Positions 1-5,436 of a stretch of 55,521 nucleotides of DNA are shown here, in pieces. Position numbers and translations under genes: made by a program. Where the stretch lies: the sequence record SRR2962707_495; one strand, given 5' to 3'. Every line of letters begins with the position of its first letter. Position 1 is the stretch's first letter. Under the pieces are notes generated by a model, which was not told where the DNA came from, did not search any database, and saw only the letters and a program-made list of their open reading frames with translations.

Positions 1-202
1 GTCGTCTGACGTGACCTAGGTTAATCTTTAACCTAAGGTTACGGCAGCATTCGATTTTGAGTTTTCTGTTAAAGAGTCGGAGAAGTGAGGCTATCCGGCC
101 CTTTTTGCTATTTATGCGCTTGCATGGCTTGCCATCGCCTACAAACAGATTACTTTGGGCCACAGCGAACTACTTATGATTTAAACATTTAAGGGCACTC
201 AA

Positions 203-298
203 ATGAAAAAGACATACGAAAAAGCCATTGCTACTAAGCGCGAAAAGCTGGAAAAAATTACCGCTATTTCAGAGCCGGTGTCAAACCAACCTGTTTGA
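203..298 (+). CDS. Small 31-aa peptide MKKTYEKAIATKREKLEKITAISEPVSNQPV, putative RiPP precursor (below the ORF-track cutoff)
   Basis: ATG at 203, TGA at 296-298, AAGGG RBS at 191-195 and a strong hairpin plus T-tract downstream. The N-terminus resembles the MKKxYxxPxLxKRxxLxxxTA leaders of rhizobial putative RiPP precursors. Confidence 0.65.
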   Translation: MKKTYEKAIATKREKLEKITAISEPVSNQPV

Positions 299-350
299 CG
301 TTAGCATCTGAGCCTCAGCAAACTTAAAATTAAAATCTGTCTGCAATACC

Positions 351-384
351 AAGCTTGCCCTCATTTAAGAGGGCAAGCTTTTTT
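351..384 (+). terminator. Intrinsic terminator after the small ORF; may also serve the convergent RND gene
   Basis: Perfect 12-bp stem AAGCTTGCCCTC/GAGGGCAAGCTT (351-380) with a 6-nt loop, followed by a T-run. Confidence 0.85.
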
Positions 385-387
385 GTT

Positions 388-3300
388 TTAATTGGTCTTT
401 ACGTCCTCTTGCTTGGTCTTGCGACGGCGCGTGACGAGCACAAAGAACAGCGGCACGAAAAGGATTCCCAGAATGGTGCCGGTGAGAGTGCCACCTAGCA
501 CGCTTGTGCCAATAGCGTTACGACCACCAGAACCTGCACCCGTGCTCAAAACCAATGGCAACACGCCAAGCGAGAAAGCCATTGAGGTCATGATAATCGG
601 GCGGAAGCGTTGACGCGCTGCTTCCCGGACCGCTTCAAATATCGGCTCACCTGCCTCATAGCGTTCGCGGGCGAACTCCACGATCAAGATGGCATTTTTA
701 CCGGTCAGACCGACTACGGTGAGAAGACCCACTTGGAAGAACACACCGTTTTGATAGCCGCCGAACAATGTCCACAAAAGAGCGCCAAGAATACCAACCG
801 GCATTGCAAGCAGAACCGCAAATGGGATCGACCAGCTTTCATACAACGCTGCAAGACATAGGAACACAGCTGCGAGTGATAGCGCGTAGAGCAGCGGTGC
901 TTGGTTGCCCGATTGACGCTCTTCAAGCGATAGGCCGGTCCATGATACACCATAGCCTGGAATCTGCGCCGCAAGGCGCTCAATTTCATTCATGGCTTCA
1001 CCCGTGGTCACACCGGCAGCAGGCGATCCTTGCACCTGCATCGCGCTAACGGCATTGTATCGGTTGATACCTTGGGGACCATAAGTCCAATTGCCATCGG
1101 TAAAGTTGGCAAACGGAACAAGACCGCCGCTGGAGTTGCGCACCTTCCATTCGGAAATATCAGATGGCAGTGCTCGCGCGTCTGCCTCGCCTTGGATATA
1201 GACGCGTTTGATGCGGTCACGGTCGACAAAGTCGTTCACATAACTGCCAGCCCAAGCCACTTGCAGAAGCTGCGCGACATCATTGGCTGATATGCCCATC
1301 GCGCCAGCGGCACGCCAATCAATATCCAAATGATATTGAGCGGCATCCTCTAGGCCAGAAGGCCGCGCTGAGGCGATCAATGCGCTTTGAGCGGCCATGC
1401 CAAGCAGTTGGTTGCGGGCGGCAAGAAGTTCATCATGCGACTGGCCATTACGGGCTTCTAGGTAGAAGTCAAAACCACTCATGATGCCAAGTTCTGGCAC
1501 AGATGGCGGCACAATTGGAAACACCAAAGCGTCTTGTATCGCCATGAATGCGGGAAATGCACGGCCAGCAATTGCCTGCGCGCTTTGCCCCGGAGACTGC
1601 CGCTCAGACCAATCTTTCAAGCGAATGAAAGCAAGACCCATGTTTTGACCTTGACCAGAAAACGAAAAGCCAACGACGCCGAACACGGCCTCAACATTGT
1701 CTTTCTCATTTTCCAAGAAGTGCTTTTCAACTTTGCTCAGAACTTCTTGCGTGCGCCCAGCTGTCGCGCCAGTTGGCGCTTGAATGAGTGCAAGCAGAAT
1801 GCCTTGGTCTTCATCGGGCAAGAACGCAGTTGGCGTCTTCGTGAAACTCCAAACCATGATGCCAACGAGCACCAAATAAATGATACCCACTCTAAATGGA
1901 CGACGAACAATCCATCCAACGGAGCGACCATAGCCATTAGTAAGGCGTTCAAAATTGCGGTTAAACCAACCAGCTGGCCCGCGTTTGGCATGATGGGCCG
2001 CTTTTGACGTTAGAAGCGTGGCGCATAGAGCCGGTGTCAGCGTCAACGCAACGAGGACGGAAAGGCCCATCGCCGAGACAATCGTGATCGCAAATTGCTG
2101 ATAGATTACCCCCGTTGAACCACCGAAAAAAGCCATCGGAACAAAAACCGCAGACAGCACCAGCGCGATACCAATCAGAGCGCCAGTAATCTGGCCCATT
2201 GATTTGCGGGTGGCTTCAACGGGACTAAGCCCCTCTTCCTCCATAATGCGCTCAACATTTTCAACCACGACAATCGCGTCATCAACCAGAAGACCGATGG
2301 CAAGCACCAAGGCAAGCATTGTGAGAGTGTTAATGGAAAAACCTGCCGCTGCGAGGATACCAAAGGTGCCCAAAAGAACCACCGGAACAGCAAGCGTTGG
2401 AATAAGCGTCGCGCGCAAATTTTGCAGGAATAGAAGCATAACAAGGAAAACCAGTACAATGGCTTCGGCCAATGTTTTGATCACTTCCTCAATCGATATT
2501 TTAACGAACGGCGTTGTGTCATAAGGAATGACATAGCTCACGCTGTCGGGGAAAAAGGCAGATGCTTCCTCAATTTTCGCTTTCACCAATTCGGCGGTTT
2601 CAAGCGCGTTGGCACCCGCAGCAAGACGGATCGCCATGCCGGTTGCCGCATTTCCGTTGTAACGGGCAATGGTAGAATAGTTTTCAGATCCAATTTCTAC
2701 GCGCGCGACATCTTTAAGCAAAACAAGGCCGCCATCGGTGGCGGCGCGAATAACGATGCCTTCAAAATCTTCCGGCGTTGTTAAAAGAGATTGTGCCGTG
2801 ATGGTCGCGTTTAGCTGCTGACCCTCAACCGAGGGAAGCGTGCCAAAAGCACCGGCGGAAATCTGCGCGTTCTGCAATGAGACCGCGCCAACAACATCGC
2901 TTGGTGCAAGTCCATAGGCCGCTAGCTTCACCGGATCCAGCCAAATGCGCATCGCATATTTTGAGCCGAAGACCTGAACGTCGCCCACACCCTCAAGACG
3001 ACTGAACTCATCGACAAGATTGGTGTTCATATAGTCTGACAGGTCGGTTTGGTCTAATTTATTGCCTTCAGAGATAAGCGAAATAACCATCAGAAAACTG
3101 GCAGATGATTTTTGTACGGTTACGCCTTGGCGCTGCACAATTTCGGGCAACAATGATGTTGCTTGTGAAAGCTTATTTTGCACCTGAACCTGCGCGATGT
3201 CCGGATCAATCCCCGTTTCAAAGGTCAGCGAGATTGACGCTGTGCCAGCTGATGTGGAGGTTGACGAAAAGTAGCGCAATCCGTCGAGGCCGGTTAAGCG

Positions 3301-3501
3301 CTGCTCAATAACCTGCGTCACCGTGTTGGCAATGGTTTGAGCCGATGCGCCCGGATATCTCGCGGAGATTGACACCGTTGGCGGTGCAATCTGCGGGTAC
3401 TGCGAGATCGGTAGAGATAATATGGATAGAATGCCTGCGCCCATTATGATGATCGCAATCACCCAAGCAAAGATCGGACGGTCGATAAAAAAGCGTGCCA
3501 T
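388..3501 (-). CDS. acrB: HAE1-family RND efflux permease (AcrB/MexB-like), 1037 aa
   Basis: Starts MARFFIDRPIFAWVIAI (start reassigned to ATG 3501). Has GLLVDDAIVVVENVER, KNAILIVEFA and RFRPIIMTS motifs. Confidence 0.93.
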   Translation of the reverse strand: MARFFIDRPIFAWVIAIIIMGAGILSILSLPISQYPQIAPPTVSISARYPGASAQTIANTVTQVIEQRLTGLDGLRYFSSTSTSAGTASISLTFETGIDPDIAQVQVQNKLSQATSLLPEIVQRQGVTVQKSSASFLMVISLISEGNKLDQTDLSDYMNTNLVDEFSRLEGVGDVQVFGSKYAMRIWLDPVKLAAYGLAPSDVVGAVSLQNAQISAGAFGTLPSVEGQQLNATITAQSLLTTPEDFEGIVIRAATDGGLVLLKDVARVEIGSENYSTIARYNGNAATGMAIRLAAGANALETAELVKAKIEEASAFFPDSVSYVIPYDTTPFVKISIEEVIKTLAEAIVLVFLVMLLFLQNLRATLIPTLAVPVVLLGTFGILAAAGFSINTLTMLALVLAIGLLVDDAIVVVENVERIMEEEGLSPVEATRKSMGQITGALIGIALVLSAVFVPMAFFGGSTGVIYQQFAITIVSAMGLSVLVALTLTPALCATLLTSKAAHHAKRGPAGWFNRNFERLTNGYGRSVGWIVRRPFRVGIIYLVLVGIMVWSFTKTPTAFLPDEDQGILLALIQAPTGATAGRTQEVLSKVEKHFLENEKDNVEAVFGVVGFSFSGQGQNMGLAFIRLKDWSERQSPGQSAQAIAGRAFPAFMAIQDALVFPIVPPSVPELGIMSGFDFYLEARNGQSHDELLAARNQLLGMAAQSALIASARPSGLEDAAQYHLDIDWRAAGAMGISANDVAQLLQVAWAGSYVNDFVDRDRIKRVYIQGEADARALPSDISEWKVRNSSGGLVPFANFTDGNWTYGPQGINRYNAVSAMQVQGSPAAGVTTGEAMNEIERLAAQIPGYGVSWTGLSLEERQSGNQAPLLYALSLAAVFLCLAALYESWSIPFAVLLAMPVGILGALLWTLFGGYQNGVFFQVGLLTVVGLTGKNAILIVEFARERYEAGEPIFEAVREAARQRFRPIIMTSMAFSLGVLPLVLSTGAGSGGRNAIGTSVLGGTLTGTILGILFVPLFFVLVTRRRKTKQEDVKTN

Positions 3502-3517
3502 GTCGGCCTCCGCGAGG

Positions 3518-4648
3518 TCAGTTTTGAGTGGGTGTTTCGGCGCGTTCTGCTGGTGCAACAGTTGCACCGACGGCAATCTTCTGCAGACCTTCAACAATCA
3601 CCTTGTCGCCAGCCTCGATGCCATCAGTTACAATCCAATCCGATCCGCGATCGCTTGCAATTGTCAGCGTGCGCTGTTCAACTTTGTTGTCCGCGCCGAC
3701 GACCATTGCCGTTGGATTGCCGCGTCTGTCGCGCGAAACACCTTCCTGTGGAACAAGAATTGCATTTTCGATCACGCCCTGCGGCATTTCCACTTGAACA
3801 TACATGCCAGGGAGCAACATTTGGTCTGGATTAGGAAACTTTAGACGCAGCGTCACCACGCCGGTTTGCTCATCAACATAAGGCTCTGCAGCCGTTAGCT
3901 CGCCGCTTTCATCATAATCGGTTCGATCAGCAAGTGTTAGTTTGACCTTTGTATCAGCATTGGGGCCAAGAACACTTGGTCCCTTGCGCTTCCAACGAAC
4001 AAGGTCAGCAGCAGACTGGGCAACGTCAACATAGACAGGATCAAGCTCGCGAATGACAGCCAATGGGCTGCTCTGTCCAGATATAACAAGGGCGCCTTGC
4101 GTGGTCAGCGAAAAGCCGATAGCGCCGCTAATTTTAGCGCGGACGGTTGTGCGATCTAAATCGATATTAGCGGCCATTAGCTGGGCGTTCGCGACCTGAA
4201 GCGCGGCGTTTGCCGCGTCACGTGTCGTGATGGCGGTATCTACTGCTTGTTGGCTGCCGACATTGCGCTCGCGCAAAGAATTGATGCGCTTTAGTTCGCG
4301 GTCAGCCGAATCCAAACTGACTTGTGCTTGAGCGACAGAGGCCGCAGCGACAGCAACTTGAGCTTCATAACTTGCTGGATCAATTTTATAGAGTGCATCG
4401 CCTTCCTTAACCGCCGAGCCTTCATCAAAAAGACGATCAACGATAATTCCGTTCACCTGCGGGCGCACTTCAGCAACGCGTGAAGCGACGACACGACCAG
4501 GAAGCGTGGATGTAACGGTGACGGTTTCTTGCTTTGTCGTCACAACAGTAACTGGGGTTGGCGGGCGCTCTTGTTGCTGTGCCAGTGCGCTAGGCGCAGC
4601 AGCCGCGGCTATCAGGAACGAAATCAGGGCGAAAGGCGCTAACCTCAT
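3518..4648 (-). CDS. acrA: RND periplasmic adaptor (AcrA-like membrane fusion protein)
   Basis: AEVRPQVNGII and LLPGMYV motifs, N-terminal signal peptide, GGAG RBS before ATG 4648, directly upstream of acrB. Confidence 0.9.
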   Translation of the reverse strand: MRLAPFALISFLIAAAAAPSALAQQQERPPTPVTVVTTKQETVTVTSTLPGRVVASRVAEVRPQVNGIIVDRLFDEGSAVKEGDALYKIDPASYEAQVAVAAASVAQAQVSLDSADRELKRINSLRERNVGSQQAVDTAITTRDAANAALQVANAQLMAANIDLDRTTVRAKISGAIGFSLTTQGALVISGQSSPLAVIRELDPVYVDVAQSAADLVRWKRKGPSVLGPNADTKVKLTLADRTDYDESGELTAAEPYVDEQTGVVTLRLKFPNPDQMLLPGMYVQVEMPQGVIENAILVPQEGVSRDRRGNPTAMVVGADNKVEQRTLTIASDRGSDWIVTDGIEAGDKVIVEGLQKIAVGATVAPAERAETPTQN

Positions 4649-4710
4649 CAGTATTCTCCGTTTATTTAGGCTTGGCCGCTTGGCTAAATTGCATATTGCG
4701 GTTATTAAGG

Positions 4711-4759
4711 AAACCAAGTGGTTTTATAATGCTATATTTGCATTGCGCAAGCGCAATGC
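4711..4759. promoter_or_regulatory. Two inverted repeats in the acrA/tetR divergent region (candidate TetR operators)
   Basis: AAACCA-AG-TGGTTT (4711-4724) next to TATAAT (4725-4730), and GCATTGCGC-AA-GCGCAATGC (4740-4759). Confidence 0.5.
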
Positions 4760-4785
4760 CGCAACTAACAGCACGGGAGGGTTCG

Positions 4786-5436
4786 TTGTTGCTAAAATGT
4801 CGCGATTCCAATCGCGGCCCTGGGAGGCCGCGCCAACTAGATACAGTTGAACGTGAGGCAATGATTATAGCCGCAGCCGAAAGAGTTATTCTTTCTAAAG
4901 GTCTTGGCGGAGCATCGATGGCTACGATTGCCAAAGAGGCGGGGATGTCAAAGCGCACACTTTACGAGGTTTTTGACAGTCGCGCCGCGCTGTTTGCCTC
5001 GATCATTCGGCGAATTCGCAATATGATGACGCGGCAACTGTCCGCGCATGAACTTGAGTTGCCACTTGGTGAAAGGCTGCGCCTATTGCTGACACCGTCT
5101 ACTGAAAGTTTTTCAAATTTCTTGCCGATAACAATTCTGCGCGCGGTCGTCACGGAGGCAGAAAGACAGCCAGATATTGCCCGCGAATTTCTGCAGGAAG
5201 GTCCGCATGCGCTCTATAAAATGGTTCAACTAGAACTCGACCGATCTGTGTCACGCGGAGAGATACAGATAAGCGATACAGAATCTGCGTCGCGCCTGAT
5301 GGCTGACATGGCGCACGAGGGCGTTCTTGAACATCTGGTCGTGTCAGCGCCAGCTGAAGCGCGAGAAACAGCCTTCAACCACCGCTTAGACCTTGCTATT
5401 CGGGTATTTCTGGGTGGAATCGGAGAGCCTAAATAA
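4786..5436 (+). CDS. TetR/AcrR-family transcriptional regulator
   Basis: GRPR then HTH ASMATIAKEAGMSKRTLYEVF. Start inferred at TTG 4786 or 4789 after GGGAGG. Divergent from acrAB. Confidence 0.9.
   Translation: MLLKCRDSNRGPGRPRQLDTVEREAMIIAAAERVILSKGLGGASMATIAKEAGMSKRTLYEVFDSRAALFASIIRRIRNMMTRQLSAHELELPLGERLRLLLTPSTESFSNFLPITILRAVVTEAERQPDIAREFLQEGPHALYKMVQLELDRSVSRGEIQISDTESASRLMADMAHEGVLEHLVVSAPAEARETAFNHRLDLAIRVFLGGIGEPK

Follow-up and report, generated by a model that had tools for sequence, protein, structure and literature searches.

A 31-codon gene beside an AcrB-type pump gene probably encodes an RRE- and B2-dependent peptide precursor of an alphaproteobacterial leader family

At the left edge of the window, our name throughout for a 55,521-nt stretch of DNA from sequence record SRR2962707_495, a short open reading frame (ORF; positions 203-298) encodes a peptide with a lasso-like leader and a core that does not look like a lasso peptide. 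Is it the precursor of a peptide made on the ribosome and modified after translation (RiPP), which enzymes would act on it, and what would they make? An original prediction had proposed a precursor for an uncharacterised, non-lasso RiPP class that depends on a RiPP recognition element (RRE), with maturases outside the window. Three findings support this interpretation: homologues share the leader and vary in the core, clusters in relatives combine B1 (a discrete PqqD-type RRE), B2 (a transglutaminase-like peptidase) and a kinase with no cyclase, and the peptide family co-occurs with B2. We put the probability that the ORF is a genuine family member and an RRE/B2-dependent precursor gene at about 0.7. 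Its product is probably a short, linear, chemically decorated peptide of a kind not yet isolated.

A lasso-type leader with a non-lasso core

The gene runs on the + strand from ATG 203 to TGA 296-298 (31 codons, product MKKTYEKAIATKREKLEKITAISEPVSNQPV), with the ribosome-binding site and translation as originally described:

191-195, + strand: Shine-Dalgarno-like AAGGG, ending 7 nt 5′ of ATG 203
203-265, + strand: leader region, residues 1-21, MKKTYEKAIATKREKLEKITA, with an RRE-type Y5 motif and Thr at -2
266-298, + strand: core, residues 22-31, ISEPVSNQPV, plus the TGA stop, with the subfamily motif [K/E]-P-[V/I/L/T]-S
351-390, + strand: intrinsic terminator (stem, loop and U-tract) between the peptide gene and a convergent AcrB-type gene

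The leader keeps Y5, K12-R13, L16 and T20-A21 and has Ala, not Pro, at position 8, all as the original prediction had stated; to this we add that position 10 is also Ala, not Leu. Set against the lasso leader motif [Y/W]xxPx[L/V/I/F/A], as quoted in PMC13381572, Y5 is present, Ala at position 10 is allowed and Pro8 is replaced by Ala. T20 fits the rule that the last residue but one of a lasso leader is Thr, as given in the abstract of PMC10368454. Cleavage would by this rule fall after A21, leaving a core of 10 residues.

A lasso core closes its macrolactam on an Asp or Glu at positions 7-9, and its tail is of sufficient length to be threaded. The window core has neither: it starts with Ile, as originally noted, its only acid is Glu at position 3, positions 7-9 are free of Asp and Glu, and it ends after 10 residues. 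The core has no Lys, which leaves the new N-terminus as its sole amine, and Ser6 is the likely modification site predicted from family comparisons.

Downstream, a hairpin at 351-380 has a perfect 12-bp stem (7 G-C pairs) and a 6-nt loop followed by TTTTTTGTTTT; this U-tract, reaching to about 384, faces the + strand. The folding energy is -23.6 kcal/mol (z = -4.8), and none of 200 shuffled sequences was as stable. The stem is thus as perfect as first described. The accompanying word ‘dedicated’ does not hold, as the hairpin lies 8 nt past the stop codon (388-390) of the convergent AcrB-type gene. A simple promoter scan found no sigma-70-like site 5′ of the ORF; its single site, at 301-330, lies 3′ of the ORF and is within chance expectation. 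The first 400 bases of the window are 41% G+C, against 50% for the whole window. Pfam and NCBIfam searches with the peptide returned no family at E <= 10, and no Rfam family reached its cut-off in window 1-1000 (best 25.6 bits against 65).

The leader defines a family in related genomes

To find homologues, we searched in six frames through a sample of 401 genomes, drawn from the GTDB family to which the Hoeflea genomes closest by AcrB belong. Conserved leaders joined to variable cores, the pattern that the original prediction had suggested looking for in relatives, were found. Peptide matches occur in 38 of the 401 genomes, 18 of them at E <= 0.05; they span the first 21-28 residues and sit in short ORFs, often in tandem. 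Extraction gave more than 50 peptides of 28-52 residues with variable tails of 7-24 residues (one of 31) and the common leader MKKxYxK[P/A]xxxKRxxLxx[V/I][T/A]A. Aligning 29 members shows no variation at K3, Y5 and R13, and conservation of 90% or more at K7, L16 and A21. Within four of five tandem arrays, nucleotide identity is 0.74-0.99 for leaders and 0.34-0.53 for cores; in the fifth (locus L104) the core is conserved as well. The leader is lineage-restricted, almost confined to the GTDB family that holds Hoeflea and Mesorhizobium, because only 1 of 401 genomes in a class-level sample matched at E <= 0.001.

The closest homologues, with 70% (L101, genome G242) and 68% (L102) identity, both read YEKA at the leader motif, as do all 4 peptides of these two loci, and both loci carry B2. 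The exchange of Pro8 for Ala marks a subclade with B2-containing loci of its own and is not a lesion of the window copy, because it is common to all four. The second precursor copy at L102 is likewise preceded by AAGGGC. The likeness extends into the core: the closest homologue cores read KKPVS, KKPIS, LKPIS and VKPVS, the L101 core (IKKPVSG...) has Pro4 and Ser6 as in the window core, and the L102 cores have K-P-[V/I]-S one residue later. The motif [K/E]-P-[VILT]-S is common to the window core, L101, L102 and two variants from public sequencing runs. Across the alignment, Ser occurs in 28 of 29 cores, where a Ser content of 6% would predict about 16. Lys is found at positions 2-4 in many related cores.

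A profile of 46 family peptides, with the window peptide left out, scores the ORF at 48.0 bits (E 8.7e-14 over 2049 six-frame segments of the window), an E-value that is optimistic because the family was first gathered with this peptide as query; independent support comes from the genomic context of the homologues. The next best segment scores 7.6 bits, and the window holds no second copy. A chance ORF in an intergenic spacer, with a terminator serving acrB only, would fit the shortness of the ORF and its want of protein-database relatives, but can hardly be reconciled with the gap between 48 and 7.6 bits, the 70% identity to a precursor at a B1- and B2-carrying locus and a U-tract on the + strand.

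Homologues often lie beside lasso-type enzymes and an acyl/formyl cassette

We fetched 17 contexts with family peptides and scanned their ORFs. B2 is in view in 8 of them (L101-L105, L110, L112 and L113, the last from a genome-wide B2 search); L114 has the accessory genes and its contig ends there; and the remaining 8 (L106-L109, L111, L115-L117) have no such enzyme genes within about 7 kb.

L101 has the closest precursor and a full set of enzymes. One strand encodes PqqD/B1 (PF05402), B2 and an HprK-like kinase in that order; the other encodes a carrier protein, a GNAT protein and an AMP-binding ligase. Next come the precursor gene and, 47 nt on, that of a formyltransferase. The B2 protein matches NF033537 at 54.6 bits (curated cut-off 33 bits). 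The 339-aa kinase matches TIGR04355 weakly, and a profile of eight such proteins matches HprK structures (E 2.4e-5). Carrier proteins (78 aa in L101) share an invariant WDS motif, and one of four passes PF00550. The formyltransferase (324 aa in L101) yields a profile that matches ArnA, Fmt and the F domain of the linear gramicidin synthetase LgrA, to E 5.5e-23, with an invariant Asn-His-Asp triad.

L112, L113, L114, L146, L147 and L148 have this set too, in most cases together with a PF14907 nucleotidyltransferase. In L102, three tandem YEKA precursors lie between the ligase and formyltransferase genes, with B2 on the same 8-kb contig. The formyltransferase gene lies directly 3′ of the precursor in 6 of 7 ligase-type loci. 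No signal-peptidase family, S26 included, was found in the Pfam-scanned contexts, where B2 is present instead.

At L148 (G213:C1, 3.77 Mb), the B2, kinase, PF14907, GNAT and ligase genes are joined to genes for a ketoacyl synthase III, two aminotransferases and a beta-keto-acid cleavage enzyme. These neighbours hint that the acyl group loaded on the carrier may be a built-up amino or keto acid.

Other branches of the leader family differ in core and surroundings. L104 (G307:C1, about 206-208 kb) and L110 (G380:C40) form a second subtype, with 4-5 tandem copies, a leader ending ...KRGKLGAITA and an unusually conserved hydrophobic core, SVT[VLM]IWVP. There is no ligase among its neighbours, which comprise DUF6065, a long aldehyde dehydrogenase, a protein of 265 aa that contains B2, an HprK-like kinase and PF14907. 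Cores with Cys (for example ...VACPISHPCG and IACPISQCGD) occur in L107-L109 (G259:C34, G335:C1 and G173:C22), members of which adjoin genes for an 846-aa patatin-like protein, a GINT1_N-like protein and a FAD monooxygenase, far from B2. In L106 (G213:C1, about 2.00 Mb), two precursors adjoin genes of phage type (PF12236, a head-tail connector) as well as genes for a patatin-like lipase and for an autotransporter, and may be carried on a prophage.

The family co-occurs with B2, often at a distance

Within the same sample, B2 (NF033537) is present in 38 of the 401 genomes: 17 of the 18 peptide-positive genomes against 21 of the other 383 (Fisher p = 1.4e-18, with shared ancestry ignored). The lone peptide-positive genome without B2, G319, is a fragmented assembly. 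Among genomes with weak peptide matches (E 0.05-10), 4 of 20 are B2-positive.

Precursors and B2 genes need not be neighbours. They are 1.77 Mb apart in G213, 2.7 Mb in G335 and 432 kb in G452, and B2 lies on contigs other than the precursor's in G047, G173, G259, G294 and G400. In G180, which has the most amplified library that we saw (loci L116, L117 and L147), at least 20 leader matches are spread over contigs 1, 2 and 10, and the only ligase-type cluster lies on contig 3 and includes one precursor. Action in trans on remote precursors thus appears to be usual for the leader family, because precursors often lie hundreds of kilobases from B2 or on other contigs.

These observations bear on whether the gene could instead be an unmodified small protein, a signalling peptide or a small RNA unrelated to RiPP enzymes, its leader likeness reflecting some other shared function. 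Such a gene would explain why 8 of the 17 contexts have no modifying enzyme nearby, and the link between the family and B1/B2 is a genomic one. We nevertheless regard it as improbable, given the co-occurrence with B2 in 17 of 18 genomes, a conserved-leader, variable-core pattern typical of RiPP precursors and the lack of any Rfam family at cut-off.

Most carriers have no lasso cyclase beside B2

The lasso cyclase model NF033561 exceeded its cut-off in none of 10 peptide-family genomes. It found no match at all in G242, G017 and G180, and in G099, G148, G116, G213 and G341 its matches score only 23-57 bits and lie on other contigs or far from B2. Matches below threshold also occur in 11 of 14 control genomes and are housekeeping asparagine synthetases. 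In these eight of the ten genomes, no NF033561 match lies beside B2. The other two, G259 and G335, have two B2 genes each, one of which is directly followed by an asparagine-synthetase-like gene scoring 87-90 bits. A lasso-like cluster is therefore present as well in some genomes that carry the leader family, and the family is not strictly cyclase-free everywhere.

If the gene were a canonical lasso precursor, with its cyclase outside the window, the Tyr motif and Thr at -2 of its leader would be accounted for, as would the asparagine-synthetase-like gene beside a B2 in these two genomes. Among 14 family peptides searched against NCBIfam, the only matches were to NF033528 (‘lasso peptide’), in two peptides and below cut-off (E 3.5e-4 and 4.4e-3). 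NCBIfam thus gave no backing above cut-off to the original statement that short peptides of this kind are annotated as putative RiPP precursors in Mesorhizobium and relatives. A lasso precursor is very improbable here, because the core starts with Ile, offers neither Asp nor Glu at positions 7-9 and, at 10 residues, cannot hold both a ring and a threaded tail. NF033561 is also absent beside the cluster, and from the matches over its cut-off, in G242 and G099, the genomes with the closest homologues, and in G148, G017 and G116. A non-lasso RiPP precursor remains our preferred reading.

The gene is probably the last of a tandem array

The original prediction took the gene for a stand-alone transcription unit, which the left edge of the window makes doubtful. 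We aligned Logan contigs of four public runs (X1-X4) to window 1-1200; the best DNA run shares 0.29 of sampled words with the window, and no contig covers window 40-100. Two further features belong to this edge:

1-19, + strand: putative 3′ end of an upstream tandem precursor copy, reading S-S-D-V-T-stop in frame 2 with TAG at 17-19, cut by the window edge
10-42, + strand: strong stem-loop spanning the stop of this putative copy; no U-tract follows immediately 3′

A contig from X2 (record 9) joins a family-type leader (window 198-267 with 8 differences) to 12 other letters and then to window 1-39 (2 differences). Its gene, read through, ends with window 2-19, and its core, 10 residues long, resembles that of the window ORF in having Pro4 and Ser6. 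Window 1-19 is therefore probably the tail of an upstream tandem copy. That putative copy ends about 183 nt before ATG 203, and the period of the L102 array is about 180 nt. The gene at 203-298 is probably the last of a tandem array that is cut by the left edge of the window and ends at 351-384, as judged from a relative's contig rather than this genome's DNA.

The fold of window 1-70 has an energy of -23.0 kcal/mol (z = -4.1; none of 200 shuffles as stable), and the hairpin at 10-42 is a candidate inter-gene element within the array, acting as an attenuator or on RNA stability.

Other contigs sample the gene itself. A 218-nt contig from X4 is identical to window 167-384. Contigs from X1 and X4 track the window leader over 206-258 with 5 differences and then carry another core, again with the motif, as E-P-T-S. 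Four leader differences are listed for the variant contig: three are synonymous (AAG>AAA at K3, ACA>ACT at T4 and GCT>GCG at A10), and the remaining one, ATT>ACT, falls at the variable position 9.

The adjacent AcrAB pump

Beyond the terminator, a conserved block begins:

388-3597, - strand: AcrB-type RND gene (PF00873, 1243 bits)
3518-4717, - strand: RND membrane-fusion gene, forming a pump pair with the AcrB-type gene
4672-5436, + strand: TetR/AefR-type regulator, divergent from the pump pair

Over its last 350 residues, the AcrB-type protein shares 88-89% identity with its counterparts in four Hoeflea genomes (L001-L004). Other DNA follows acrB in these genomes, and it neither encodes the peptide nor resembles window 1-400. 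The peptide gene therefore lies outside the conserved acrAB-tetR block. Export of the peptide by the adjacent AcrAB pump, which the original prediction had offered as speculation, is unsupported: Hoeflea genomes without the peptide keep acrAB-tetR, and none of the contexts scanned elsewhere has an RND pump next to a family peptide. A search of a plasmid collection gave one irrelevant 71-nt RND match.

The enzymes for the window gene would lie either just upstream of the window or elsewhere in the genome.

Comparison with known systems and a proposed pathway

The closest parallels come from Bacillota, in the linear polyphosphorylated peptides (LPPs; lppA-K-B-S-D-N), described by Popov et al. 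(Nat Commun 2026, PMC13381572). There the kinase LppK adds up to four phosphates to Ser3 of a linear core, and the exchange S3A abolishes this (PMC13381572). The relatives' clusters, though not the window itself, share with LPP clusters a discrete RRE together with an HprK-like kinase, an uncharacterised NTP transferase and the lack of a macrolactam cyclase. LPP precursors are RRE-dependent, as those of the family probably are, and both kinds have a Tyr-x-x-Pro-type leader, a conserved N-terminus and a variable C-terminus, and the one to three precursor genes of LPP clusters recall the multiple precursors of the family.

There are also differences. In LPP systems a SipW-like signal peptidase I cuts the leader, whereas in the relatives here that part falls to the lasso B2 cysteine protease; of the LPP leader motif YxxPxVLxHQxIxFETxxS, the window leader has only the Tyr; precursors are 35-200 aa long, against 28-52 aa in the leader family; LPPs are confined to Bacillota, whereas the leader family is alphaproteobacterial; and the ligase, carrier protein, GNAT and formyltransferase set lies outside the LPP core genes.

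Kinase-bearing lasso clusters with split B1 and B2 (paeninodin type), as PMC13381572 describes them, share with the relatives a discrete PqqD RRE, B2, an HprK-like kinase and a PF14907-type nucleotidyltransferase, together with the [Y/W]xxP leader motif and Thr at -2. By contrast, the ligase-type relatives lack the asparagine-synthetase-like cyclase and add an acyl/formyl cassette, and family cores are too short and have no acidic ring-closing residue. The system would work like LPPs and like these lasso clusters while belonging to neither.

Two further comparisons concern gene organisation and the cassette. In prochlorosin-type systems, many scattered precursor genes are served by one enzyme. 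The family resembles them in organisation only, with a conserved leader, hypervariable cores and precursors far from the enzymes (G180); the enzymes and chemistry are entirely different. LgrA formylates a carrier-bound aminoacyl group. As in LgrA, Fmt and ArnA (PDB 5es5, 1fmt and 1yrw), the formyltransferase encoded next to the precursor keeps the Asn-His-Asp triad, and the ligase-type loci also encode a ligase and carrier protein; it differs in being free-standing with a C-terminal part of its own of about 100 residues.

From these parallels we propose the following pathway. The discrete PqqD-type RRE (B1) would bind the Tyr5-centred motif of the leader, and the transglutaminase-like B2 peptidase would cut after Thr20-Ala21 to free the 10-residue core ISEPVSNQPV. 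With no asparagine-synthetase-like cyclase and no acid at core positions 7-9, the peptide would stay linear. The HprK-like kinase would then phosphorylate the conserved core Ser (Ser6 in E-P-V-S), after the precedent of LppK, and the PF14907 nucleotidyltransferase may extend the phosphate. Finally, the acyl-AMP ligase, carrier protein, GNAT protein and Fmt/ArnA-type formyltransferase would cap an amine with an acyl or formyl group; here the target would be the new N-terminus, because the core has no Lys. Taken alone, the three chemical steps of phosphorylation, extension and capping are tentative, and we hold them somewhat less probable than not.

Weighing the precursor reading

Several points weigh against the reading of the ORF as an RRE/B2-dependent precursor gene. 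First, the window has none of the machinery: tblastn with 15 cluster proteins, covering B1, B2, kinase, ligase, GNAT, nucleotidyltransferase and formyltransferase, found nothing below E 0.1 in the 55.5-kb window, and 3′ of the precursor there is a terminator and acrB instead of a formyltransferase gene. Second, the five genomes closest by AcrB (Hoeflea and one labelled Rhizobium, 81-89%) have neither the peptide nor B2. Third, both Pro8 and Leu10 of the RRE motif are Ala in the window leader. Fourth, searches beyond the relatives came back empty: phmmer with the peptide had 0 matches among 1.84 billion representative proteins, a blank to be expected when the query has 31 residues and such ORFs are seldom called, and a scan of metagenome contigs for the degenerate pattern KKxYEKAxxxKR[E/D] gave 16 loci, all chance occurrences inside larger unrelated proteins. 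To these are added the seeding of the profile with the window peptide, the disregard of shared ancestry in the co-occurrence counts and the cyclase-like genes beside B2 in G259 and G335, and all of the chemistry is drawn from homologues and the LPP precedent.

The rival that draws most on these points is a stranded or decaying copy, which has no cognate enzymes or whose Pro8Ala/Leu10Ala leader goes unrecognised, so that the peptide is unprocessed or not made. It would explain the lack of maturases in the window, of B2 and the peptide in the closest genomes and of the usual 3′ formyltransferase gene, and it suits an AT-rich region (41% against 50% G+C). Yet the frame, ribosome-binding site and terminator are intact, YEKA leaders occur at the B2-carrying loci L101 and L102, and Ala at position 10 is allowed by the [Y/W]xxPx[L/V/I/F/A] motif in PMC13381572. 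The leader differences in the variant contig are mostly synonymous, the core retains the P-x-S motif of its subfamily, and remote precursors are normal in B2-positive genomes. We consider such a copy unlikely, although less so than the other alternatives, and prefer a functional precursor.

What the family would mean

More widely, a single cyclase-free lasso-type enzyme set in Hoeflea- and Mesorhizobium-type bacteria (B1, B2, HprK-like kinase, nucleotidyltransferase, ligase, carrier protein, GNAT and formyltransferase) might serve a scattered, tandemly amplified and hypervariable precursor library, yielding short linear peptides that are phosphorylated on Ser and capped by N-formyl or N-acyl groups. 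This would be an undescribed RiPP class with prochlorosin-like organisation, and the window gene would be one member processed in trans. We offer this as a speculative picture, to be held more loosely than the chemical steps by themselves. We know of no product of this cluster type. A literature search, which did not extend to subscription journals, found no description of these Rhizobiales peptides, nor of a B1/B2 cluster that also encodes a ligase, a carrier protein, a GNAT protein and a formyltransferase.

To our knowledge, lasso-type B1/B2 recognition and cleavage have been thought to feed a cyclase. The first cyclase-free relatives, the LPPs, came into print only in 2026, use another peptidase and occur only in Bacillota. 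The leader family would define the substrates of a second cyclase-free branch, which is alphaproteobacterial, keeps B2 and adds acyl/formyl chemistry, and it shows precursors that are both scattered and amplified. Some of the host genomes may be those of plant-associated rhizobia, judged from taxonomic family only. The family offers concrete cores, ISEPVSNQPV in this case, a conserved Ser that is the candidate modification site and natural Pro-to-Ala leader variants useful for testing RRE specificity, which together make heterologous expression and liquid chromatography-mass spectrometry directly feasible.

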